A stretch of DNA of 64,000 bases from a virus. Below the pieces are notes generated by a model that saw nothing but the letters and a program-made list of their open reading frames with translations, searched no databases and was not told the DNA's origin. Where the stretch lies: IMG/VR virus record IMGVR_UViG_3300048911_000270, positions 1,064 through 65,063 of that record. One strand, 5' to 3'. The position numbers and the translations under genes are program-made. Each line of letters opens with the position of its first letter. The stretch's first letter is position 1. This document shows positions 16,311 through 38,773 of this stretch, one piece after another.

Positions 16311-16532
16311 TCAGGAAGCGGGGTTCCGCTTCGCCAGCCGCTCGCGGACCGCCTTCTTCACCATGTCCGTGCGGCCCCGGCGCTGACGGGCCTCCTGCTC
16401 CCGGGCGAACGCCGCACGCTCCTCGGCGGTCACCGCCACCGGGATCACCTGCATCTGCATGCGCTCCTGGACCTGGGCGATGTGCTCGTCCAGCCCTGCC
16501 TGGTCGTTGTCGTTGCTCTCGGGACCGCTCAT
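16311..16532 (-). CDS. Small ribbon-helix-helix-like protein
   Basis: VIPVAVTAEERAAF...RTDMVKKAVRERL pattern resembling CopG/Arc. Confidence 0.45.
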   Translation of the reverse strand: MSGPESNDNDQAGLDEHIAQVQERMQMQVIPVAVTAEERAAFAREQEARQRRGRTDMVKKAVRERLAKRNPAS

Positions 16533-16583: not shown

Positions 16584-19500
16584 CTAATCCCATTCGTCGG
16601 TGGGGACGATCTCCACGACGATGTAGCGCTTGCCGCTGTACGGCTTGGTTCCGTCCGGCGGGGACGCCTGGTCCGAGACCACCCGGTACTTGGTGCCGCG
16701 CGGCAGCAGGATCTCCTGCTCGTGGGAGAACTTGGATCCCGTCGCGTAGTTGGCGTCGATGACCTTGTGCCCCTTGGGGATGCGGACTTCCATCCACACG
16801 TTGCCGCTGAAGGCGTTCTTGTCCTTGGCCGTCGAACCGTACGCCAGGTCCTGGTAGACGTTGCCGGGGTCCATCGGCGGCGGGAAGTCCGGGAACTGGC
16901 CGTTGGTGCCCATCTTGCGGACCGTGACGAGGTCGTGGGCCAGCGGCGGCGCCTGCCGGAACGCGTCGTCCATGTGCTTGATGGTGTCGTCCCAGTCACC
17001 GCCCGTGGCCCCGACCGGCGGCGTGATCATGGTGCCGTCGTAGTCGAAGTGGCCGCGAAGCTGACCGTTGATCTCCGAGTGCTCGTGACCCGTGTACGTG
17101 TACACGGCGGACGACGCCTTGCCCTTGGGCTTCCAGCCGTTGCCGATGTCCACACCGTTGGTCGCGGCCGTGTACCCGGCGGCGTGTGCCCCGGCGAACT
17201 GCGTCTTGGTGTGCGCCAGGACCGCGTCTTCGTCGCCCGCCTCGGCGGCCGTCATCCCCTTGGGGACCGCCTTGGCCGGGTCGAAGGACGCCGGATCGAA
17301 CGGCGAGCTGTAGTGCGCGTCCCAGTCCTTCTTCGCCTGCTTGTACAGGGCGATCTGCGCCGGGGTCGCGTTCGGGCCGTGGGCCTGGTCGTACAGCTTC
17401 TTCAGCAGTACCGCGTTCGCCTTCTTGGTGATACCCAGGCCGGTGTACTTGACCTCCGGAGCCGTCACCACGTCGGGCGAAAGACCCTGGCTCTTGAGGT
17501 ACGTCTTCGGCGAGTTCTGGGCCTGCGCGATGTCCAGCGTGGACGCGCCCGCCTTCTCGGCGGCTTCCTTGAGGTCGATGGACTTGTCATAGTCCCAGTG
17601 GTCACTGTTCTGCGGCAGGTTGTGCTCGGCCAGGGCCTTGAGCGCCGCCTGCTTGGCGGAGAGCGAACCGGTACCGGACGGTGCCGCCGCAGCCGCAGCC
17701 GTCGCCGGGTTGTTCTGCTTGTCCAGTTCGGCCTGGGCCTCGGTGTTCCAGTGCTTGTTGATGACGCCCTGCTTGAAGTCAGCGAACGCCTGCGGGTTCT
17801 CGTTCTTCCACTTGGCGAACTCCTCCTTCGTGAAGTTCTTGCCGCCGTAGTTCTTGGCCATCCACTCGGCGGCGAGCTTGGCCTCCTTCTGCGTCTTGAA
17901 CTTGTGCGAGCCCATCTTCATGCCGTCGGCCTGCGTCACCGACCAGCCGGAGCCACCGAGGGCCTTGTGGACCACGAGGTTCTTGGGACCGGCCACGCCC
18001 TGGGACATGTGCGTGTTGCCGTCGGCGTCCTTGACCCCGTGCTCCACCTTGGACCACTTGGCCTTCGGCTTGAACGGGTCCGTCTTCGGGCCGGACGGGG
18101 CCGCCGGAGCCGACGCGTCCGCCTCAGGGGCCTTCTTCTCCGCCGGAGCAGCCGCGCTCTCCTTGGCCTTCAGCGCCTTCAGCGTCTCGTCCGACTTGTA
18201 GTACGCCGCGTGGATCTCGTCGGGGGTGGCCCCGGCGTTGATGGCGGCGTTCTCCAGCTTCTCGGACGTCTGGTGGTTCCAGTCGGCGGTGTTGTCGTCG
18301 TGCTCGTGCGCGGCGAGCGCCTTGAGCGCCTTCTCCTTCTCCGACAGGCCCTGGGGCGCCGGAGTAGGTGCAGAGGACTTGGAGACCTTGTCCAGGAACG
18401 CCTTCGGGTTCTGGATGGCGGCGATGACTTCCTTGGGGTCCGCGCCCAGGTCGATGGCCTTCTGCTTCAGGGTCGTGTATTCGCCGGGCTCCCACTCTTC
18501 CCCGGAGGCCATCTTCTCGGCCATGGTCTTGATCACGGCGTCCTTCGCCGACAGACCGGAGTCCTTCGCAGAAGGCGACGGGGCCGAGGGGCTGTTGGCG
18601 AGGAAGGCGTCCGGGTCCTTGACCACGGAGGTGATTTCCGCCTTCGTGGCGCCCGCCGCGAGAGCCTTCGACTTTGCGACCTTGTAGTCGGTCTCGTTCC
18701 AGTCGTTGTCATCGATCTTCATCATCTCGGCGATGGCCTTGAGCGCGGCGTCCTTCTCCGCCGAACCGCCGGAACCGGCCTCCGGGGCATCGGCAGCCTT
18801 GGCCGCCTTCTGCGCCGGAGCAGCGCCCTGCTTGCCCTTGTCGGGCAGGTCGTCGTAGAGCTTCTGGAAGTCCTTGCCCAGGCTGTTCTTGTGGGCAACG
18901 ATCTTGTCGAGGAACTTCTCCTCGGTGTCGACGCCGCCCGGGAACTTGTGGCCGCTCGCGAGGGCCTGCTTGGCGTACGGGGCGAAGAGCCGCTTGAACT
19001 CCTCGTCCGGCATGTCCTGGATTGCCTTGATCGTTTTGGCGAACTCGTTGTCCCCGGACGGGTCCGGGAGCTGGATCTTGCCTTCCTTGGCAGCCTGCCA
19101 CAGGGCGGGGTACACGGCCGAGTGCGCGTTCGGGCCGTACGTGGTCAGCGGGTCGCCCTTGGACTTGCCGCCGTCGCCCTTGTACGGGTCGCCGTTGGAG
19201 GCGCCCACGGTGTACTTGAACGCCTGGCCCTGGTCGATCGACATGAGGCCGGTCGACGGGGACTTGATCCACTGGCCGTTGTGGGAGTCCTGGTTGCCGG
19301 TGGCGTAGTCCAGCACCTGGTGCTGGAGCATCTTCATGATGTCCTCGGGGGGCATCTTCGCGGCCATGTCGGCGTTGAACTTGTAGCCCGGGAACGCGTC
19401 CTCGGCGCCGGGGATCATGCCCTGGAGGTGACCGTCCTTGGTCTTCACGAACACCGGGGTCGGCAGGCCGACCTTGCGGTGCAGCGCGGCGACGGCGGGG

Positions 19501-21677
19501 TCAAGGCTGCGGGAGTACTCGTCCGTCTTCGCCAGCCACAGGTTCCCGTCCTCGTCCTTCATCAGCTTGCTGCCGTGGGAACCGAGCGTCTTGCCGGTGT
19601 ACGTCAGCTTGCCGACCGGCTTGAGAACCTTGCCGTCGTCGGCCGCGTCGACCTTCTTGACCGGAGCGGACGGAGCCTCGGCGGCCTTCTTGGTCGCGGC
19701 GGCGTCGGCCGCGTCACCGTGGTGCTGGACCAGGTTCTTGAACTTGTTGACGGCCCAGTCCTTGGGCTCGTCCTTGTCCTGCTCCGCCTTGAGGGCCTTC
19801 GCAGCCGCCTGACCGGCCGCCTGGTGGTCCTTGTGGTCCCCGGTGATCTCGGCGATGGACGACAGCGCGTTCGCCTTCATGGCGGGGCTGTCCGCCTTGT
19901 CGGCGAGTTCCGCGACCTTCTTGTAGTTCTCGATCGCCTTGTCTTTGTCCCCGGCCGTCAGGGCGTCGTCAGCGGCGTTGAACGCCTGCCCGGCCTGCTG
20001 GAGCGCCTGCGACTTCTCCGACTCGGCCTTGGCGGCAGCAGTGGCCTGCTCGCCGTGCTGGGTCGCCTTGGCCATGTGGCCCTGGGCGGCCTCCTTGTGG
20101 TCCGCCGCCAGGCCCTGGAAGCCCGCGTCCAAGGCGGCCTTCTCCGCGTTGGAGTGCAGCAGGGCCGCTTCCAGGTGCTTGGCGTTCAGCGTGTCGTCGC
20201 TGGCCTTGGCGTAGGTCGCCTCGTGCACCTCGGACGTCTTGGCGTGCGCCTTCTTGCCGTGGGCGTCGTACGCCTGCATCTTCGCGAGCGCTTCGGCGTT
20301 CTTCTTGTCGACCTCGGCGGCCTTGGCCTTGTACGAGGCGGCGTTCGCCTTGTGGTCCTCGGCCTCGTCGTGCAGACCGGCGGCCTTCGCAGCCTGGTGC
20401 GCCTTCTCGTACTTGGCGGCGGCGTCCTTGAACGCGGTCGACGCCGAACCCGAGTCCCCCAGCGCGTGGCCCTTGTTGGCGGCCTCGTCGGCGGCCTTGG
20501 CGTGCTTGGCGATCTCGGCCTGGGCCGCCTTCTGCTTGGCCTCGTGCTCGTCGTGCTGCTTCTGGAGCCCGGCCGCGATCTCCGCGTGCTTGGCCTCGTG
20601 CTGCTTGTGCTCGTTGACGGACTCGTCGTTGCCGATCTGCCCGTGCGCGTTCGCAGCCTGCCCGTGCGCCTGGGCGGCCTGGTTGTGCGCGTGCGCCTGC
20701 GCGGCCAGCGGGGTGTCACCCTCCTCGCTGGCAATCGACGCGCTCTTGGACTTCTTGTAGGCGCCGTCCGACATGGTGGCGGCGGCCTTGTCCAGTGAGT
20801 CGTGCGTCTTCTGCTGGTTCTCGGCGATCTTCTCGTGCTTGGCCACCGCTCCCGCGTGGGCCTCGCCGACGAACTTGTTCCCGGCCTCCTCGTTGGCGTG
20901 CTGCGCGTTCAGGTGCGCGGCAGCAGCCTTCGTGTGCAGCTCGGCGGCCTGCTTCGGCGTGTGGTTGCCGCCCTTGATCGAGGCGGTGAGTTCGTTCGCC
21001 TCGGCCGTGAGCTTGGTCGCCTTGGCCTTGGCGTCCGCCAGCTTCTTGGCCGCCGCAGCCTTCTCGGCCTCCAGCGCCTTGGCCGCGTCCTCCTTCGCAC
21101 CCTGCTCCAGCTTCGTCGCCTTCGAGGCGTGGATCGCGGAGTGCGCGGAGTGCGTGAGGACACCCGACTTCAGGCCGTCCTTGCCCATGCCCTGGAAGTG
21201 GTGGGCGGCGTCGGCGTGCTGAGTCGCCGCGACCTTGTGGGCCGCCGCCAGAACGGCCTTGGAAGCGCCGGACTCTTCGAGCTTGTGCACCATGTTGGTG
21301 GCGCGCTCGGCCTTCTGGACGGCTGCCTTCGCCGCTTCCTGCTTGGCCGCGACACCCGCCGCGCCCTTCTTGACCTCGGCCTCCCAGTCCGCCTTGGAGG
21401 CGTACCGGTTGACGGCCTTGAAGGAGATCTTGCCGTCGGCGCCCTTGACGAAGTGGCCGGTGGTGTGACCGCCGGAGATGTGGCCGTGCTGACGGGCGAG
21501 ACCGCCGCCGGACAGACCACGGGAGGGGATCAGGGGGTTGATCAAGATCCATCCGTGGCGGTATCTAAATGCAAGGGCGCCAGCGGGATTTTTCGAGAAA
21601 TCTAAGGTGTGAGCGTCAACAACCCTCACATTCTTAGGTAACACCCCGACGAACGCTAACTCATATTCCACGTTCAC
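16584..21677 (-). CDS. Giant head-cargo protein: His/Ala-rich region, HipA/PI3-4K-like kinase, four helical repeats, C-terminal ADP-ribosyltransferase
   Basis: Kinase: LWLAK...VLDYATGNQDSHNGQW...SIDQGQAF. ART (R-S-E): YTYTG...INGQLR...VTVRKM...YGSTA...EQEILLPRGTKYRV. Confidence 0.78.
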   Translation of the reverse strand: MNVEYELAFVGVLPKNVRVVDAHTLDFSKNPAGALAFRYRHGWILINPLIPSRGLSGGGLARQHGHISGGHTTGHFVKGADGKISFKAVNRYASKADWEAEVKKGAAGVAAKQEAAKAAVQKAERATNMVHKLEESGASKAVLAAAHKVAATQHADAAHHFQGMGKDGLKSGVLTHSAHSAIHASKATKLEQGAKEDAAKALEAEKAAAAKKLADAKAKATKLTAEANELTASIKGGNHTPKQAAELHTKAAAAHLNAQHANEEAGNKFVGEAHAGAVAKHEKIAENQQKTHDSLDKAAATMSDGAYKKSKSASIASEEGDTPLAAQAHAHNQAAQAHGQAANAHGQIGNDESVNEHKQHEAKHAEIAAGLQKQHDEHEAKQKAAQAEIAKHAKAADEAANKGHALGDSGSASTAFKDAAAKYEKAHQAAKAAGLHDEAEDHKANAASYKAKAAEVDKKNAEALAKMQAYDAHGKKAHAKTSEVHEATYAKASDDTLNAKHLEAALLHSNAEKAALDAGFQGLAADHKEAAQGHMAKATQHGEQATAAAKAESEKSQALQQAGQAFNAADDALTAGDKDKAIENYKKVAELADKADSPAMKANALSSIAEITGDHKDHQAAGQAAAKALKAEQDKDEPKDWAVNKFKNLVQHHGDAADAAATKKAAEAPSAPVKKVDAADDGKVLKPVGKLTYTGKTLGSHGSKLMKDEDGNLWLAKTDEYSRSLDPAVAALHRKVGLPTPVFVKTKDGHLQGMIPGAEDAFPGYKFNADMAAKMPPEDIMKMLQHQVLDYATGNQDSHNGQWIKSPSTGLMSIDQGQAFKYTVGASNGDPYKGDGGKSKGDPLTTYGPNAHSAVYPALWQAAKEGKIQLPDPSGDNEFAKTIKAIQDMPDEEFKRLFAPYAKQALASGHKFPGGVDTEEKFLDKIVAHKNSLGKDFQKLYDDLPDKGKQGAAPAQKAAKAADAPEAGSGGSAEKDAALKAIAEMMKIDDNDWNETDYKVAKSKALAAGATKAEITSVVKDPDAFLANSPSAPSPSAKDSGLSAKDAVIKTMAEKMASGEEWEPGEYTTLKQKAIDLGADPKEVIAAIQNPKAFLDKVSKSSAPTPAPQGLSEKEKALKALAAHEHDDNTADWNHQTSEKLENAAINAGATPDEIHAAYYKSDETLKALKAKESAAAPAEKKAPEADASAPAAPSGPKTDPFKPKAKWSKVEHGVKDADGNTHMSQGVAGPKNLVVHKALGGSGWSVTQADGMKMGSHKFKTQKEAKLAAEWMAKNYGGKNFTKEEFAKWKNENPQAFADFKQGVINKHWNTEAQAELDKQNNPATAAAAAAPSGTGSLSAKQAALKALAEHNLPQNSDHWDYDKSIDLKEAAEKAGASTLDIAQAQNSPKTYLKSQGLSPDVVTAPEVKYTGLGITKKANAVLLKKLYDQAHGPNATPAQIALYKQAKKDWDAHYSSPFDPASFDPAKAVPKGMTAAEAGDEDAVLAHTKTQFAGAHAAGYTAATNGVDIGNGWKPKGKASSAVYTYTGHEHSEINGQLRGHFDYDGTMITPPVGATGGDWDDTIKHMDDAFRQAPPLAHDLVTVRKMGTNGQFPDFPPPMDPGNVYQDLAYGSTAKDKNAFSGNVWMEVRIPKGHKVIDANYATGSKFSHEQEILLPRGTKYRVVSDQASPPDGTKPYSGKRYIVVEIVPTDEWD

Positions 21678-22230: not shown

Positions 22231-24123
22231 TCAGAGGCACTTTTTGCCCTTCTGACGCCGCTTCTTCTGCGCCTTGATCGCCGCATCCGCCAGGTAGCGC
22301 TTCGGATACTTCGTGGTCAGGCTGTTGACTGTGAGCCGTGCCCCGTCCTGGGAACTCCCGGTGGGTACGGTGACCTGCTCCGATGCCATGGGCTGGGACA
22401 GGTTGACGTTGTTGCGGAGGTTGTCCTTGATCTCTTCCTGCTGGGCCTCGTAGTGGTCCAGCAGCCGGACCTGGGTCGGGGTTAGCGGCCGACCGGCCTT
22501 CTTGTCCGCGAGGGCCTGACGGGTGGCGTCGGAGATCAGCTTCTGCTTGGCCTTGGCCTTCGCCGCCTTCTCCTTCGCCGCCTGCTTCTGCGCCCGGAGC
22601 TTGGCCACCTCCGCCTTCTTCTTGGCCATCTCCTTGGCGTGCGCGGCCTTCTTGGCGGCAGCCGCCTTGGCCCGCGCCGCCCGCTTGGCCTCGGCCTCGT
22701 GGTGCTTCTTGGCGGAAGCGGCCTTCTTCGATGCCTTCTTGGCGTCGGCGGTGGCCTTGTTCTTGTACGCCTGGGCGATGGCCGCCTTGGTGGCGTCGGT
22801 GTGACCGGTCATGTCCTTGATCTCCTGCGCAGACTTGTCTTTCTGCGAGGGACCGACGGGGTTGCCGTTCTTGTCGACGGGGACCCAGTTGTGTTTCCAG
22901 CCGACGGCGCCCGGGGGGAGCTGGTGCTTGCCGTGCGGGTTGTCCTTCGGCTTCTTGTCCTTGGCCTTCGGCTTGTGCGCCTTCTCCGGCCGGGGGCCGG
23001 AGGATCCCGCGATATCCGCCGGGACGGCCAGGTCGATCGCAGAGGAGCCGTCCAGGACGGCTCGCAGGAACGTCATCGGCTGGGACAACGTCACCTCCTC
23101 CCCCGGGTCGGATGCTGCGTGGGTAACGGTGACCACGGGGAACTCTCCTTCGTGTGAGACGTGTGTGACGTGCAGGCGGGTGCCGCGCGGCAGGACGGTT
23201 TCGTCTCCCCGGACGGGGATGATCGGGGCGCCCTTGCGGCCTTGGATGCGGAAGAGAACCTTTTTGCCGGTCTCGTGTCCGCGTTCGTGCATGTAGTACT
23301 CCGCCACGTCCCGGGAGAACGCGGCGGATCCGTAGCCCTTGTCGTGCAGGACGGAGCCGGGCGTGAGCGCGGCGATCTGGTCGTCGGTGAGGGAGGCCCC
23401 GCGCCACAGGTCGGCGTCCCGGCTCAGGGACGCCTTGGCGGCCACCGAGTCGAGTCCCTTGTTACGGGCCTCCTCCTCGGCGTCCAGGGCTTCCCCGTTG
23501 CGCAGCTTGCGGTTGATCCGCAGCGTGTCCTTGTCGAAGGCCACGTAGTCGTTGACGGCCGCGTGGTCACTCTTGCCCAGAACGGCTTCCCGCAGATGGG
23601 TGTTGCCGCCCGGCAGGGAGTCTGTGTCGGCGTCCGATACGGCCTTGCCGTGCACGGCGACGTTGGCCCAACTGCCCTTGTGGTCAACGGTCGGGTAGGG
23701 GCGGTCTTCGCCCTCTTCCTCTTCGGCCATGGCCAGCAGAGCCTTCATGGCGTCCATGGCCGACCACTTGCCGTCCGGGGTGCGGGGCTCGTCGGGGTTG
23801 AAGTTCGCCAGCTTGACCGTACGGCCCTTGTTCGGTGTCGCGTGGGCCCTGGCCTTGGAGGCTTCCCAGTCGGCCAGGGCGGCGGATGCGGCAGCGCGTA
23901 CTTCGGGGCGGACGTTGCCGCGCCCGGAGGCCCAGTTTTTGATGGTGCCGAGGGCCGTGGCGATGGCCCGGGACTTGTCCATGCCCCGCTTGGTCATCAG
24001 GCTGTGCGCGATGTTTTGCACGTACGGCGGAAGGCTCAGGGAGCGGTCCCCGAAGAGACCGGGTCCTCCCGGCTTCCCGAGCGGGTGCGGTGTGACCGCT
24101 AACGCCGCTGTCTCGGCACTCAT
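22231..24123 (-). CDS. Head-cargo protein with central ADP-ribosyltransferase domain
   Basis: FNPDEPRTPDGKW motif; ART: VNDYV...INRKLR...LWRG...HDKGYGSAA...DETVLPRGTRLHV; Lys/Ala-rich C-terminus. Confidence 0.72.
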   Translation of the reverse strand: MSAETAALAVTPHPLGKPGGPGLFGDRSLSLPPYVQNIAHSLMTKRGMDKSRAIATALGTIKNWASGRGNVRPEVRAAASAALADWEASKARAHATPNKGRTVKLANFNPDEPRTPDGKWSAMDAMKALLAMAEEEEGEDRPYPTVDHKGSWANVAVHGKAVSDADTDSLPGGNTHLREAVLGKSDHAAVNDYVAFDKDTLRINRKLRNGEALDAEEEARNKGLDSVAAKASLSRDADLWRGASLTDDQIAALTPGSVLHDKGYGSAAFSRDVAEYYMHERGHETGKKVLFRIQGRKGAPIIPVRGDETVLPRGTRLHVTHVSHEGEFPVVTVTHAASDPGEEVTLSQPMTFLRAVLDGSSAIDLAVPADIAGSSGPRPEKAHKPKAKDKKPKDNPHGKHQLPPGAVGWKHNWVPVDKNGNPVGPSQKDKSAQEIKDMTGHTDATKAAIAQAYKNKATADAKKASKKAASAKKHHEAEAKRAARAKAAAAKKAAHAKEMAKKKAEVAKLRAQKQAAKEKAAKAKAKQKLISDATRQALADKKAGRPLTPTQVRLLDHYEAQQEEIKDNLRNNVNLSQPMASEQVTVPTGSSQDGARLTVNSLTTKYPKRYLADAAIKAQKKRRQKGKKCL

Positions 24124-24566: not shown

Positions 24567-25187
24567 CTATTTCCTTCTCAGATGTTCCGGAAGGGCCGTC
24601 ACCACTGGTTTTCCTTCGTAGGCGGGAAGGGGGTAGCAGCGGCAGCGCGGGTGTCTTCCTCCGGGGTGCAGTCCTTCCGGGGGTGTGCTCGCGGAGTAGT
24701 TCTTTCCGATAAGCCACCGACAGTCGGGGGTGGTGTTGTCGTCCAGAATTCCGCCCCAGCCGAGAGTGTCGCTGGATGTGGTGGTCTGCATGTTCACGGA
24801 GCCCTTGGCGGCGGCTATCCGGCGGGCGCACGCCTGTTGGTGCTGGGCGAACAGAGCCTTCTCCCGGGCGAGGGCTTTGCCCAGGTCAGGGGCGTCTGCG
24901 AGGCGTCGGACGGCTGCGGCGAGGTAGGCGGCCCGGTAGCGCATGTTCTCCCGGCGGGCTGCGGCGACGGGGTCCGTGCCTTTTGCGAGGGCCTTCTTAC
25001 CGGGCTTGTACTTCATCGCGGCGAGGATCCCGAGGACGAGCTTTTTCGGGGTTTTCAGCACAGCGGAAATAGCCTGTATTGCGGCGATGAGAGGAGGTCC
25101 CGCCAATAACACGGCGAGAACAGCCGCGATCTCGGCATCGTGCTGAGAAGGGGCCTTTTGGGCTATTTGCTGGTCTTGCTCGTCCAT
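24567..25187 (-). CDS. MuF-like head morphogenesis protein
   Basis: WGGILDDNTTPDCRWL...HPGGRHPRCRC; directly after portal. Confidence 0.8.
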   Translation of the reverse strand: MDEQDQQIAQKAPSQHDAEIAAVLAVLLAGPPLIAAIQAISAVLKTPKKLVLGILAAMKYKPGKKALAKGTDPVAAARRENMRYRAAYLAAAVRRLADAPDLGKALAREKALFAQHQQACARRIAAAKGSVNMQTTTSSDTLGWGGILDDNTTPDCRWLIGKNYSASTPPEGLHPGGRHPRCRCYPLPAYEGKPVVTALPEHLRRK

Positions 25188-25275
25188 GCGCTCTCCCGGT
25201 AACATCCGTTTCGGGTGGTTGGGTGATCGAACCCCCGCTAGTCGAAGCACTGCTCCTAGCGGGGGTTCGGTTTTT

Positions 25276-26856
25276 TTATTTGCCCTTCCCGGCACCCTGA
25301 CTACCGGTGGAACCCTTTGCCGCAGCGGCCTTCTGCTGGACCATCTTCGCGGCCTTGTTGATGCTCGCCCCGGCCTTCGCCAGCTCCGCCTTGCGCTGCA
25401 CGTTCGCAGCCCCCACGGCCGCGCCCGACTGCGGGCCGCCCTGGGCCGCGAGCTGCTTCTGCGCGTCCAGACCCGTGCGCTTGGTCTCCAGCTCCAGGTC
25501 CATGCGCTCGTCAATGCGGTCGGCGAGCTGCTTGAACTCCTGGTTGACCTCTTCCATCGGCATGTCGAGGTAGGTCCCCATCATGCGGGTCAGCTCCGTC
25601 ATGAACGCCTGGGGGACGCGGAGTTCGGTCGGGGTCGTGCCGAACGCCGTCAGCAGCTCCTTGACGACGGTCAGGTCACCCTCGGACAGCGGCCCGAACT
25701 CGAACGTCGGGCAGACCGCGCCGGGGCCGAAGTTGTACATGACCAGGTCGGCGATCACGTAGTTCGTGATCGATTCGGCCAGCTCCCGCGCGGTGCCCGT
25801 CAGGGACTGGAGGAAGAAGTCGCTCTGGTCCTTGGACAGGGCGTACGAACCGCCGGGGCTGTCGGGCAGGTTGGTGAACCCGGCCAGCACGGACGCGGCC
25901 ATCTGGTTGTCCAGGTAGTCGATGAACTCCTTGAACAGGGCGGCGGCCCCGGTGCCCAGCTCCAGCGTGCTGATGTCCGTCTCGGTCGACGTGCCCAGCA
26001 CACCGCCGTTCTTCAGGTGCCGCAGCGCCTGCGCGTACTGCCGGGCCCGGGTCTCGTCCTCGGCCCGCACGACGTACCGGCCGGTGGCGTTGGCCTCCAG
26101 GAACGTCGCCCAGAGGAACAGCACCTTCTGCTTCTTGTCGTGGAGCCAGTAGATCAGCTCCATGTCGGAGTGACCGCGCGCGGCGTTGATGTGCTGGTTG
26201 TTCAGGTGCACCCAGGCGTACTGGGCGGGGATGTCCACCCAGATGTCCGGCCAGATCTCCCCGCCGACCGACACCGGGCGCTGCCGGAAGCCCCGGAACG
26301 CGCCGGACTTGGGGTCGCGGGCGATGGCCGTGGTGGGTGAGGGGCGGAACGCCAGCCGGTCGTAGACGACCTTGCCGTCCTTGTCGGTGAAGACCTTCTC
26401 GAAGCAGGCCTTGCGGTAGGTACGCGCGGAGAGAGCCTGCGCGATGACCAGGCGCATCGGGGTCTTCATGCCGCCCTGGTTCGCCGGGGTCGTCAGCGCC
26501 TTGGTGACGAACTCGGCCTCGCCCTTGTCCCCCGGTCCGGCGACGATCTTCCACGGCGCGGAGCGGATCGGGAGGGTGAGCACCTGCTGGATCGTGCGGG
26601 CCTTGCCGTCCTTGGCGAGCATTTCGTCAAGGGACAGCGACCCCCATTCGTCCTCGTCCAGGAGAATGCGGCCGGGGATACCGGACCACGATGCGACATA
26701 AGCGTCGGTTGTGGTGAAAAGGCTACCGGCCTCCGTGTCAAGAACGACGTCGGGAGCCCCCTTCACCGTCTTGGTCGGTGCGGCCTTTTCAGGCGCGTTA
26801 CCCGACGCGTAAAAGGGTGCCGATAACGGCACATCGCCAGCCTGCTCTGCGCCCAC
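25276..26856 (-). CDS. Portal protein (Mu gp29/DUF935-like)
   Basis: 526 aa; QQVLTLPIRSAPW...ARGHSDMELIY...DNQMAASVLAGF...GSYALS; follows terminase. Confidence 0.88.
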   Translation of the reverse strand: MGAEQAGDVPLSAPFYASGNAPEKAAPTKTVKGAPDVVLDTEAGSLFTTTDAYVASWSGIPGRILLDEDEWGSLSLDEMLAKDGKARTIQQVLTLPIRSAPWKIVAGPGDKGEAEFVTKALTTPANQGGMKTPMRLVIAQALSARTYRKACFEKVFTDKDGKVVYDRLAFRPSPTTAIARDPKSGAFRGFRQRPVSVGGEIWPDIWVDIPAQYAWVHLNNQHINAARGHSDMELIYWLHDKKQKVLFLWATFLEANATGRYVVRAEDETRARQYAQALRHLKNGGVLGTSTETDISTLELGTGAAALFKEFIDYLDNQMAASVLAGFTNLPDSPGGSYALSKDQSDFFLQSLTGTARELAESITNYVIADLVMYNFGPGAVCPTFEFGPLSEGDLTVVKELLTAFGTTPTELRVPQAFMTELTRMMGTYLDMPMEEVNQEFKQLADRIDERMDLELETKRTGLDAQKQLAAQGGPQSGAAVGAANVQRKAELAKAGASINKAAKMVQQKAAAAKGSTGSQGAGKGK

Positions 26857-34588: not shown

Positions 34589-35120
34589 CCTGGCCTGCGA
34601 GTTCTACGAGAACGGGCGCACCATCGACCTGATCTCCCTGGCGATCGTGGCGCCGGACGGCGAGTTCTTCTACGCGATCAACCAGGGGATGCCGTTCGGG
34701 CCGATCTTCCGGCACCGCTACCTCCCCGAGCACGTGATGCCGTACCTGCCGGTGCGGGAGGGGCACTTCAACCCGTGGGACACCGAGCACCCGGACTATC
34801 AGTTCGTGATGCCGCTCGCGTCGATCGCGCAGGGCGCCCGGAAGTTCATCACCCGCTACTCGGATCCGTGCCTGTGGGCGGACTACGGGGCGTACAACCA
34901 CGTGGTGTTCGCGCAGTTGTGGGGCCGGATGCAGGACTACCCGGTGGGGCTGCCCATGTGGACGGCGAACACCCAGCAGGAGATCCGGCGCCTGGGCTCT
35001 CCTGCGGTTCCTCCGATGGTGGGCGGGGATCCGACGGCGTTGCGCAAGGCGATGCATAACCAGACCGTCCGCAAGTTCCTGCGGGAGTACGAGAAGGAGA
35101 TTCACGATGGATGCCGCTGA
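34578..35120 (+). CDS. RNase AS/Rv2179c-like 3'-5' exonuclease homologue with degenerate active site
   Basis: CEFYENGRTIDLISLAIVAPDG...LWADYGAYNHVVFAQLWGRM...LPMWT; DEDDh positions substituted. Confidence 0.7.
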   Translation: MDLDLACEFYENGRTIDLISLAIVAPDGEFFYAINQGMPFGPIFRHRYLPEHVMPYLPVREGHFNPWDTEHPDYQFVMPLASIAQGARKFITRYSDPCLWADYGAYNHVVFAQLWGRMQDYPVGLPMWTANTQQEIRRLGSPAVPPMVGGDPTALRKAMHNQTVRKFLREYEKEIHDGCR

Positions 35121-35319
35121 GTTACGGAATCGGTTCGAGTACCACCCGCCGAAGGGGCCGGAGACCGCGTCTGCGCATGAGGTGACGCGGGAGGCGTGCG
35201 CGACGATGGCGGAGTTCTTGAACGTCGTGGTGCCGGAGGGCCGGGAGAAGGCGCTGGCGATGACGCATCTGGAGACGGTGATGTTCTGGGCGAATGCAGC
35301 GATTGCCCGGCAGTCATAG
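35107..35319 (+). CDS. Small Tad1/Acb2-like helical hairpin protein
   Basis: RNRFEYHPP...VPEGREKALAMTHLETVMFWANAAIAR. Confidence 0.6.
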   Translation: MDAAELRNRFEYHPPKGPETASAHEVTREACATMAEFLNVVVPEGREKALAMTHLETVMFWANAAIARQS

Positions 35320-35406
35320 TCTTGTCTGATTTGTCTACCCTTGCACGTTCAATTCAGAATGTGCTAGGGTAGATACATCACCCCAACACCCCAGGAGTAC
35401 ACCACC

Positions 35407-36486
35407 ATGACCTTCACCACCCAGCAGAAGAAGCTGTCCTCCCTCATCGGCGGCGCCCTCGGAGACGCCCTCGGCTACAGCCGCGAGTTCTCCCCCGTCG
35501 GCCAGCACCTCAAGAACATCCCCGGCCGCGACTGGCGCAACGCCGACTTCGACAACGCACCCAACGCCGCGCACTACCAGGACGAGACCGGGCACGCGCT
35601 CGTCTCCGACGACACACAGATGACCATCGCCACGGGCCGGGCGCTCCTCGCCGCCGAGAACGGTTTTCGCATCCAGTACACCAACAACCTCGCGGCCGAA
35701 CTGGCACGAAAGTATGTCGCCTGGTCCAAGCACCCCGACAACACACGGGCCCCGGGCGGGGCGTGCATGAGCGCCTGCCGGAAGCTGGACGACGACCGGT
35801 CCTGGGAGACCGAGCTGGGTACCTGGATCCGGGCCACGGACATCGACACGATGGGCTGCGGCGCCAACATGCGCGTTGCGCCGATCGGCCTGTACATGAA
35901 CCCGGGCGCCGGATCCCTGATCGATATCGCCTACCTGTCCTCGGCCATGACGCACGCCCACCCTGCCGCGCTCGCCTCGGCCGCGCTCACCACGGCCGCC
36001 GTCACGGGCGCCTTCGACGGGATGAACGGCCGGGAGATCCTGGACATGCTGCTGGACATGTGCGAGATGTCCCAGTTCATTCACTACCCGGAGACCGTCC
36101 TCGGCCCCCTGTGGGAGCTGTCCCAGTTCGACTCGGCCCTGTCCTACCTCCAGGCCGGATACCAGCGCTGCGGCTTCTACCTGCGCCAGGCGGACAGGGC
36201 GCTGCGGAACGGCTGGAAGGGCCAGAACGACCCGTGCATCATCACGGGTGAGGGCTGGACCGCGCCGGAAGCCCTCGCGGGCGCGATGCTGTGCACCGTG
36301 GGCCTGTGGGACGAGCCCGTGCAGGTTCTCCAGCGCGCGGCCGTCTCCAAGGGCGACAGCGACTCCCTGGCGTCCATCGCGGGCAACATCCGTGGGGCGG
36401 CCGGAGTCGAGTGGCCGGAGCACCTGGTGAGCCGTCTGGAGCAGGGCCCCGTACGGGAGCTGCACGCCCTCGCCAAGGCCCTGTAA
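35407..36486 (+). CDS. ADP-ribosylglycohydrolase (DraG/ARH family)
   Basis: GGALGDALG, SDDTQMT, GCGANMRVAP, MTHAHP, GDSDSLASIAG. Confidence 0.92.
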   Translation: MTFTTQQKKLSSLIGGALGDALGYSREFSPVGQHLKNIPGRDWRNADFDNAPNAAHYQDETGHALVSDDTQMTIATGRALLAAENGFRIQYTNNLAAELARKYVAWSKHPDNTRAPGGACMSACRKLDDDRSWETELGTWIRATDIDTMGCGANMRVAPIGLYMNPGAGSLIDIAYLSSAMTHAHPAALASAALTTAAVTGAFDGMNGREILDMLLDMCEMSQFIHYPETVLGPLWELSQFDSALSYLQAGYQRCGFYLRQADRALRNGWKGQNDPCIITGEGWTAPEALAGAMLCTVGLWDEPVQVLQRAAVSKGDSDSLASIAGNIRGAAGVEWPEHLVSRLEQGPVRELHALAKAL

Positions 36487-36551
36487 GAAACCCTCCGGGG
36501 GTTGTACGGGATAATCCCGTACAACCCCCTTTTGCTGATTGGAGAACCGCT

Positions 36552-37058
36552 GTGCCTGACCGCCCCGACTGGGACGCCTATTTTCTCGGAATCGCGCGAG
36601 CTGTAGCGGCCCGTGCCGACTGCACCCGCCGTCAGGTGGGCGCCGTGATCGTGGACGAAGATCACCGCATCATCGTCACCGGGTACAACGGAAGCCCGCC
36701 CGGCGGCCTGTCCTGCCTCAAGGGGGAATGCCCTCGCGGACGGCACTACAAGCAGGCCGACAAGTGGTGCCATGTGCACAACGAAACCGACTGCTCTTGC
36801 GCGGATTGGCGTTGCGCCTGCGGTGAGTACTGGCCATGTACGCAAGCCGCACAACCCGGCAGTTCCTATGACACCGGGGCCGGGGCATGCGTTTCGGTAC
36901 ATGCCGAGGCGAATGCACTGCTTTTCGCCCGCGCTTCCGTGAAAGGGGCCACGCTGTATTGCACGGATGCCCCGTGCGGAGGATGTTCTCGTCTCATCCG
37001 GGGCGCCGGGATAGCCCGGGTGATCATCCCAGGAGCCTCACCGGTTCCAGCCAACTGA
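36552..37058 (+). CDS. dCMP deaminase family protein
   Basis: RPDWDAYFL...CTRRQVGAVIV...TGYNG...HAEANA...PCGGC, with a Cys-rich insert. Confidence 0.9.
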   Translation: MPDRPDWDAYFLGIARAVAARADCTRRQVGAVIVDEDHRIIVTGYNGSPPGGLSCLKGECPRGRHYKQADKWCHVHNETDCSCADWRCACGEYWPCTQAAQPGSSYDTGAGACVSVHAEANALLFARASVKGATLYCTDAPCGGCSRLIRGAGIARVIIPGASPVPAN

Positions 37059-37225: not shown

Positions 37226-38773
37226 ATGAAGATCGACTCGCCCCCGCCGGAACGCGAAGTCCCCTCTCTGGGGCGCTTCGAAAAGGTGCTCCTCGGGGTG
37301 GTGACCGTGGGGGCGATCACGGGTGGCGGAATCGGTCTGTACTCGTCTGTTGACTCCGTGTCCGCTGCTGCGGCGCGGTGGGGATTCGACCCGCCGATCA
37401 TTCTCCCGGTGGCCCTGGATATTTCCATTCCGGTGTTCTCGCTCGTCAACCTGCTGCTGATCCGGCTCGATATGCCGCTCGCCTGGGTGCGCATGGTTCC
37501 GTGGGCGTTGACGGCTGTGACGGTCTACATGAACGTCACGGCAGCGGGTGACGCTGTGGCCGCCCAGATCGGTCACGGCGCGCTGCCGATGCTGTGGGTT
37601 CTGCTCTCCGAGGTTGCCGCGCACGTGTACCGGACCCGCATCGGAGCGGTGACCGGGAAGCGGATGGATAAGGTCCGGAAGTCGAGGTGGCTTCTGGCGC
37701 CGATCTCCACCTGGACCCTGTGGCGGCGGATGGTCCTGTGGGAGGTCATCTCTTACCGGGTGGGCCTGCTGCTGGAGCGGAACCGGAAGCTGATGCGAGC
37801 CGATCTTCAGGACCAGTTCGGCAAGGGCTGGCGGAGGAAGATCACGGAGCGCCAGAAGGTGCTGCTCCGTCTTGGCGAACTGGCGCCCGCAGAGCTGTCG
37901 GCGGAGTTGGCGGCAGACGAACTGGCGGCAGTTCCTGGCGGCGAACTGGCGACAGGAGCGGAGACCCCTTCCGTTGTTGGCGGCGAGCTGGCGGCGCGAA
38001 CTGGCGGCAAGGACACCCACGAACTGGCGGCTGGAACTGGCGCCAACTTGGCGACAGGAAGCGAACTGGCGGCAGCAGCTTCTACCGCCAAGAGCGCCCC
38101 CGCCAACTGGGAGAAGCGCCAGGAAGACCTGGCGACAACTCGCGGAACTGGCGACAAGAAGCCTCTGACCAGCACTTTCGCTGTTGGCGGCGACAAGAAG
38201 CGGGCCGTGACCGTCTCTATTGGCGATCTCCCGGAGGAGGCGGCGGACCCCGGCTTCATCGACTTCCTGGCGGTTGGCGACGAACTGGCGGCAGCCGCTC
38301 TTGGCGCCAACAACGGAGCTGGCGACAGCTCGGACGGAGCTGGCGACAGCTCGGACGGAGCTGGCGACAACTGGGCCGGAGCTGTCGATGAGCCCGTCGG
38401 AGCTGGCGCCAACAGCGGACGAACTGGCGACAGGAGCGACAGCGGAACTGGCGACAGCTCGGCCGCCAACAGCGGAACTGGCGACAGCTCGGGAACTGGC
38501 GACAGCTCTTCTGGCGGCGCTTCTGGCGACAGCTCGGAGGTGTCGCCAACTGGCGGCAAGAGGGGCAAGCGGCGCCCGATGGCGGAGTGGATCGAACTGG
38601 CGAGCCCGATCTTCGACGCCGAGATGCGGCGCCGGAAGAGGCAGCCGAGCGGACCCGAGTTCGCCACCGCGATCGAGGAGGCGGGGTACGGGGCAGTGTC
38701 CGACTCGACCGCCAAGAACATCAGGACGGCGATCCTGGACCAGCGGGCCAAGGCCCTCACCGCGTCCCGCTGA
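37226..38773 (+). CDS. DUF2637-like membrane protein (plasmid Spd-like) with repetitive middle and C-terminal HTH-like region
   Basis: Four hydrophobic helices...HGALPMLWVLLSE...RWLLAPISTWTLWRRMVLW; ELAA/TGDS repeats; C-terminal RQPSGPEFATAIEEAGYG.VSDSTAKNIR. Confidence 0.75.
   Translation: MKIDSPPPEREVPSLGRFEKVLLGVVTVGAITGGGIGLYSSVDSVSAAAARWGFDPPIILPVALDISIPVFSLVNLLLIRLDMPLAWVRMVPWALTAVTVYMNVTAAGDAVAAQIGHGALPMLWVLLSEVAAHVYRTRIGAVTGKRMDKVRKSRWLLAPISTWTLWRRMVLWEVISYRVGLLLERNRKLMRADLQDQFGKGWRRKITERQKVLLRLGELAPAELSAELAADELAAVPGGELATGAETPSVVGGELAARTGGKDTHELAAGTGANLATGSELAAAASTAKSAPANWEKRQEDLATTRGTGDKKPLTSTFAVGGDKKRAVTVSIGDLPEEAADPGFIDFLAVGDELAAAALGANNGAGDSSDGAGDSSDGAGDNWAGAVDEPVGAGANSGRTGDRSDSGTGDSSAANSGTGDSSGTGDSSSGGASGDSSEVSPTGGKRGKRRPMAEWIELASPIFDAEMRRRKRQPSGPEFATAIEEAGYGAVSDSTAKNIRTAILDQRAKALTASR
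37872..38602. repeat. Intragenic array of YTGGCG / GAACTGGCG repeats
   Basis: Roughly 40 copies, one orientation, read in more than one frame (GAA CTG GCG = ELA; ACT GGC GAC = TGD). Confidence 0.8.

Follow-up and report, generated by a model that had tools for sequence, protein, structure and literature searches.

Among the closest described systems in which a writer of ADP-ribosylation is paired with an eraser is Bxa/Bsi/BAH of the Bacteroides stercoris prophage PhiBxa (Alexei et al. 2024), where the hydrolase serves as a self-immunity protein (PMC11699363). BAH reverses the action of Bxa, and needs for this a glutamate equivalent to E27 of the enzyme described below (PMC11699363). Head-packaged ADP-ribosyltransferases (ARTs) of the VIP2 type are common in actinophages, and this tested precedent has its antidotes beside the toxin in a prophage. 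Passages of Iyer et al. 2022 (PMC9503650) describe ARTs of the Alt/VIP2 type that are packaged in phage heads, and note that ARG genes turn up sporadically in actinobacterial phages of medium size and that Aeromonas phages have an ART next to an ARG; they also predict that Nudix-regulated ARG operons of the host undo viral marks. Our searches of the literature, which covered papers outside subscription, recovered none on an unlinked pairing of an ADP-ribosylhydrolase (ARH) with an ART in actinophages.

The DNA analyzed here (the window) is a 64-kb stretch, with a GC content of 65%, out of an 89.5-kb record of an uncultured soil virus that is ~70% complete; sibling genomes reach up to 125 kb. 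By capsid (38-40%) and terminase (47%) its nearest cultured phages are Marky, Microdon, JackieB and their kin, which we take to be cluster BH. As these phages infect Streptomyces, the host is probably a streptomycete.

The ARH gene of the window (35407-36486, plus strand) is an intact open reading frame of 359 aa, just as a preliminary description of this DNA had claimed, belonging to the ARH1/DraG family (PF03747, E 1.9e-46) and having a complete set of catalytic residues. The key positions are E27, D68-D69-T70, R114-A-P-G, G150-C-G-A-N-M-R, T182-H and D317-S-D-S320, and in an alignment E27, D68, D69, T70, T182, H183, D317, D319 and S320 are unchanged across 30 homologues. The catalytic glutamate, the two-metal ligands (E; S/T-D-D-T; D-x-D-S/T) and the TH motif all line up with those of human ARH1, which is the best solved relative by sequence (E 6e-9, with ARH3 at E 1e-3) and has the RAPG and GCGA-MR motifs in common with the window enzyme. 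The structure model displays the all-alpha ARH fold (pLDDT 94), and fold searches recover ARH1 and ARH3 at an equal rank, with a TM of about 0.7 to both. Hence specificity for arginine, which is likely, rests on the sequence motifs and is not fixed by the fold. The Pfam match begins at residue 12, there being no N-terminal extension before the catalytic domain, and the gene is conserved at the same genomic place in the clade with 53-79% identity. In one 125-kb relative (L048:9802-10834) its assembly shows a frameshift near the DDT motif, through either an assembly error or recent damage, and the called gene starts late. A distant ARH relative on a 54-kb contig (L050) is surrounded by genes for RNA ligase, polynucleotide kinase and RlaP.

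An intrinsic terminator with a 15-pair stem and a T run (36497-36529, plus strand) closes the ARH transcript, making ARH a transcription unit of its own. Its promoter (35341-35378, plus strand) comprises the -35 element TTGCAC (35341-35346), an 18-nt spacer, an extended -10 element TG-N-TAGGGT (35365-35370) and a conserved downstream AGATACAT, and is followed by the ribosome binding site AGGAG (35393-35397, plus strand). We take TAGGGT to match the Streptomyces -10 consensus; a sigma-70 promoter scanner, the consensus of which is that of E. coli and not of Streptomyces, found nothing at ARH. The forward motif before ARH is kept in the relatives L001-L005 and L049. Thus, the promoter that the preliminary description had assigned to ARH is present as described, but it is one of many, with 32 exact copies of the motif genome-wide and 46 when one mismatch is allowed. 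The ~46 copies of TGCTAGGGTAGATACAT extend over 31813-63830 of the window and over the genome to 88 kb, several of them running directly into an ATG (leaderless), and none was found in the structural region. Given these near-identical copies across the non-structural genome, ARH is an ordinary member of a large class that is probably early, and its promoter, which is of the housekeeping type, is a putative early one.

Two further features to which the same description had drawn attention proved less telling. An inverted motif copy does overlap the -35 element (35333-35346, minus strand), but it is degenerate, its -10 lacking the initial T, and five relatives with the forward motif retained have no such copy 5' of ARH. 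It is probably incidental, and a role as an operator or special regulator was rejected for this lack of conservation. ARH indeed lacks TTA codons, but this was discarded as evidence since it is expected by chance (probability 0.81 over 359 codons, given the TTA frequency in 37 other non-structural genes). Directly 5' of ARH lies an Acb2/Tad1 hairpin gene (35107-35319, plus strand; PF24729, E 1e-19; TTA at codon 6), which gives ARH a counter-defence neighborhood. On the 3' side are a dCMP deaminase and a DUF2637 membrane gene (36555-37058 and 37226-38773), between which relatives (L049:11985-13636) have ParA and a second gene that are absent from the window genome.

The presumed writer is a 1697-aa cargo protein of the head module (16584-21677, minus strand; TTA at codons 7, 13 and 25), encoded between the portal/MuF genes and the capsid gene, from which position we infer that it is packaged in the virion and injected. 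At its C-terminus is a VIP2/Alt-type ART domain (16611-17114, minus strand; PF03496, E 6e-13) with R, S-T-A and E-Q-E, an arginine-type signature, the nearest solved structures to which include VIP2 and Tre1. No other protein of the genome passes PF03496. Orthologues of the cargo with the ART are seen in every relative covering the region, the ARTs being 41-45% identical among these relatives, and the closest cultured ART is that of the Marky-type Streptomyces phages (45-46%). The central part of the protein contains a kinase-like domain (18798-19640, minus strand), which has no Pfam match and is recognized by its D-x-H-x-x-Q and D-x-G motifs; it is ~60-66% conserved in relatives, 34% in McProf (gp54), and absent in Marky. 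No MuF match was obtained within the cargo, and a weak MuF-like gene stands separately at 24567-25514.

Directly behind the ART is a 73-aa gene (16311-16532, minus strand), a candidate for a non-enzymatic inhibitor with a Bsi-like role. A gene of 66-81 aa occupies this position 3' of the ART not only in the window but also in each of the seven relatives checked and in the Marky-type phages; three of the relatives have a separate copy of the promoter motif in front of it. The predicted complex of the 73-aa protein with the ART scored 0.58, as against 0.00 for the best of three controls, with a contact agreement between runs of at least 61% and a partner pLDDT of at least 62. In our calibration, scores of 0.60 or below were given to 7 of 80 solved complexes and also to both of the two mismatches (of 110) that passed, and the complex is therefore weak support for what is probably a second, direct inhibitor of the ART.

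The preliminary description had counted two TTA-bearing virion ARTs in this genome. Both genes do contain TTA codons, which are conserved in relatives, and "virion" is in either case a reading of their place among the head genes, but only the 1697-aa protein has a canonical ART. The other candidate is a sporadic insert (23152-23580, minus strand) in a 630-aa head-module protein (22231-24123, minus strand; TTA at codon 8), which retains the R and the last E but has S-A-A instead of S-T-S, a shortened ARTT loop, and G-D-E instead of E-x-E, with the first E gone. It matches PF03496 at an E of 4e-4, below the cut-off, and the cargo ART profile with an HH probability of 72. The insert is absent from G001, G002, G003 and G005, which have none or another one, and a single further phage proved to carry it, 72-74% identical and likewise with G-D-E. 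The 630-aa protein itself is a scaffold of repeated slots bounded by L-S-Q-P-M that hold differing inserts (also in L040, L042 and P0125), ART-like in the window and of other sequence in G002 and G005. The insert may be active in another way, its activity being uncertain. It is not what ARH tracks, nor is it needed for the link between writer and eraser; a two-writer circuit as a conserved feature was rejected, as the insert is sporadic among relatives.

To examine that link, viral records were gathered with an ARH profile and the whole records were then searched for PF03496. A VIP2-type ART was detected in 29 of 46 ARH-bearing records (19 of the 26 that are at least 90% complete) and in none of 95 control records gathered via neighboring genes (0/50 for dCMP deaminase and 0/45 for the Rv2179c-like nuclease), which sets an upper 95% bound of 3% on the ART base rate. 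ARH, too, was found in 0/45 of the records from the second control. The corresponding Fisher values of 1e-14 to 1e-18 overstate the association, as the records are not independent: 13 of them are one family, and about half of the first control looks like one mycobacteriophage group. Counted by lineage, roughly nine actinophage-like groups have both genes and two or three have ARH alone. In the ARH tree the window enzyme falls in a 32-row clade (support 98/96), and all 21 testable phages of this clade carry an ART. The window terminase matches those of two phages of the clade at 37-40% and that of a 13-member 57-kb family not at all; with terminases this distant or undetectable, the ART-carrying phages of the clade are not one phage family. 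A co-occurrence of ARH with cargo ARTs across phages, which the preliminary description had put forward for checking, was thus found, but the link is to one ART and not to two.

Both genes are present in Sixama, Forza, Morgana, GMA2, McProf, Aeh1 and LPCS28. ARH stands without a detectable VIP2-type ART in Phrappuccino, Trina, Weasels2, 7t3, phage G and seven near-complete IMG/VR records, all of which fall outside the window ARH clade. The ART profile of the clade, run with no positive control alongside, matched nothing in Phrappuccino, Trina, Weasels2, BetterKatz and Toast; as the searches were directed at VIP2-type ARTs, "ARH only" means free of an ART of that type. A direct pattern scan through viral contigs with the ART domain as the query, a method that is too strict, had no match either. 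Conversely, Elezi, Gretchen, ScarletRaider, LadyBird, Cicada, Touem01 and Mecenats66 carry the ART without ARH, which is thus dispensable in many lineages and an accessory. That the ARH of this clade is always accompanied by an ART, and the ART is often without ARH, fits an accessory antidote. In G022 (L125, L194 and L222; 65.5-71.5 kb), G026, G060 and G023 there are three to five tandem VIP2-type ART domains and one ARH.

The two genes differ widely in how closely they are linked. ARH and the cargo ART are ~19 kb apart in the window, and likewise in G001 and G002, with 16-25 kb being the range across the window clade, G019, G022 and the McProf-type prophages. ARH and the head ART share a strand in the 13-member 57-kb family and G021, where ARH follows after 0.8-1.7 kb (1.1-1.7 kb in the family) and small genes fill the interval; in LPCS28 the two are at the same locus. 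By eye, seven of nine inspected sister ARH genes are directly preceded by a -35/-10 pair (spacer of 17-18 nt), even within the head module, suggesting that uncoupling from the late operon is a recurrent feature of ARH expression. All 11 Marky-type Streptomyces phages combine the closest ART with an ARH from a different subtree, on a long branch, and the Marky-type and window ARHs are mutually undetectable by tblastn. These phages at first seemed to have an ART without ARH, none from Streptomyces being matched by the window ARH in tblastn, but a profile search overturned this. Marky gp78 (L078:2337-3308), a "hydrolase" in GenBank, is a clear ARH (PF03747, E 3e-62) that is closest to the ARHs of jumbo phages. 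Thus, the Marky-type phages appear from these comparisons to have replaced the ARH partner and yet kept one. The nearest bacterial relatives of the window ARH are Streptomyces enzymes encoded in NrtR-ARH operons, to which host clade it is sister. Two examples, L389 and L391, have the chromosomal Streptomyces sister ARH in an operon with NrtR (Nudix) next to scpAB, with two RlaP genes following in one of them.

We propose, with a probability of about 0.7, that ARH is an eraser of the arginine marks made by the phage's own cargo ART, both after injection and during late synthesis. Arguing for this are the co-occurrence throughout the clade, the adjacency of the genes in sister phages, the replacement of the partner in Marky-type phages and the matching chemistry of an E-x-E writer and an ARH1-like eraser. 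In this scheme the 1697-aa cargo would be synthesized late, packaged into the head and then injected, as the position of its gene suggests, and its E-x-E domain would, as in its family, tag arginines on many proteins. ARH, having a housekeeping-type promoter to itself, would be transcribed by host RNA polymerase irrespective of the head operon, and the enzyme would hence be present from early infection and could remove the arginine-linked ADP-ribose left by the injected ART copies, which would be harmful to a cell that the phage now needs. It would also clear stray marks set by newly synthesized cargo that has yet to be packaged, with the 73-aa protein serving as the second, direct restraint on the ART. 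Packaging, substrate, timing and the activity of ARH on the products of the cargo ART are the steps that we infer. A stricter version is that ARH and the ART generate a programmed pulse, in which the injected ART switches specific host proteins at entry and the ARH reverts this minutes later from its early promoter. This would fit the recurrence of a host-type promoter dedicated to ARH, and also the exchange of ARH for a different one in the Marky-type phages. However, neither feature distinguishes a timer from clean-up; a timer is a possible special case of the eraser, and we regard it as doubtful. Equally tentative is the suggestion that the pulse acts on, for example, transcription or defense factors and that its reversal opens the next stage of infection.

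The same co-occurrence would also be predicted if the ARH of a resident phage, in early infection or as a prophage, served mainly to undo what another phage with an ART had written on entering. For such an exclusion of kin or competitors it is apt that the promoter and terminator make ARH autonomous, that a tyrosine recombinase is encoded in the window and ParA in relatives, that McProf-type prophages carry both genes, and that an enzyme, unlike a binding inhibitor, would cover ARTs as divergent as 41-45% identity. Nevertheless, we consider it unlikely, because a close-relative scan of 185,579 species genomes found no prophage of the window clade (and one distant match, in Dietzia), Marky has both genes without an annotated integrase or repressor, and a general guard should be common in ART-free phages, whereas ARH occurs in 0/45 controls. 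Strict timing, exclusion of kin and self-protection are readings that sequence cannot separate.

A hydrolase directed against the host, reversing the marks of a defense or toxin-antitoxin ART, is a distinctly improbable role, although orphan antitoxin-like enzymes have precedents in the orphan NADARs acting against DarTG1, as one report describes (PMC11825919), and although ARH has an Acb2/Tad1-like neighbor, ARH-only phages exist and the nearest bacterial relatives come from Streptomyces NrtR-ARH operons. It leaves unexplained the carriage of an ART by 21 of 21 phages, the adjacency in sister phages and the Marky-type replacement; the Acb2/Tad1-type neighbor is kept in some relatives but replaced or missing in several that retain ARH; and an ARH-like enzyme from Streptomyces left guanosine and 2'-OH marks on RNA in place (PMC11833690). 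Of the three roles offered by the preliminary description, action on the phage's own marks is therefore favored, and reversal of host marks is the least supported, since on that view ARH would have no need of a phage ART. Least probable of all is that the enzyme is a housekeeper for O-acetyl-ADP-ribose or for phosphate-linked ADP-ribose on small molecules or RNA ends, co-occurring with the ART by shared ancestry. The ARH-like SCO5809 does remove ADP-ribose from phosphate ends of RNA, the window fold is equally close to ARH3, and one distant relative is found near RNA ligase and polynucleotide kinase genes; but the co-occurrence spans unrelated terminases and two ARH subtrees, and the window enzyme has motifs of the ARH1 type.

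These observations indicate that stand-alone ARH genes of actinophages are mostly distant partners of head ARTs, which surveys based on gene neighborhoods miss. They also point to a cultured test system on Streptomyces griseus, in the form of Marky gp10 (writer), gp11 (small partner) and gp78 (eraser), in which the reversal by a phage of its own injected modifications is directly testable. As the phage ARH is sister to the NrtR-regulated host ARH predicted to counter viral ARTs, the two sides of this conflict would share an enzyme. Should the programmed pulse prove true, reversible ADP-ribosylation would be a timing device of lytic actinophages and not mere self-protection.

Compared with Bxa/Bsi/BAH, the window phage has the same principal parts, namely an arginine-type R-S-ExE ART in the head module, a hydrolase that resembles ARH1 and has both the catalytic glutamate and the metal ligands, and a small, presumably non-enzymatic gene adjoining the ART, though this last is of no known family. 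In contrast to that system, its ARH is a transcription unit of its own ~19 kb from the ART and not adjacent to it; the arrangement with ARH close behind the ART and small genes between occurs among sister phages whose ARHs belong to this clade. Moreover, the window ART, which has no MuF fusion, is the C-terminal part of a 1697-aa protein that also contains a kinase-like domain, and the inferred host is actinobacterial, whereas PhiBxa is a prophage of Bacteroides. Tre1/Tri1, a Serratia T6SS effector with an ARH immunity protein (PMC8120803), similarly couples an R-S-E arginine ART to a DraG-like self-protective eraser. However, Tri1 is encoded adjacently and blocks the toxin with an N-terminal extension (PMC8120803) that the window ARH lacks, and Tre1 is delivered by the T6SS, whereas delivery here would be by the virion. 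DraT/DraG (PMC8120803) shares the reversible ADP-ribosylation of arginine and the hydrolase family with its E/D/D ligands, but is a regulated switch with one target in nitrogen fixers, whereas the writer of the window is of the VIP2/Alt type. The passages of Iyer et al. 2022 (PMC9503650) cited above differ from the present account in that they do not connect actinophage ARGs with unlinked head ARTs.

Marky, Microdon, JackieB and their relatives come close to the window in head layout, in having the closest ART (45%), in the small gene behind it and in the distant ARH, and differ in that their ARH is of another subtree, their genomes are of 54 kb and the Marky cargo is without the kinase-like domain. 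Pairs of writer and eraser are already known, but in the window the two genes are ~19 kb from each other and appear to be switched on at different times; the value of the case is in the statistical link between ARH and ART and in the cultured test system.
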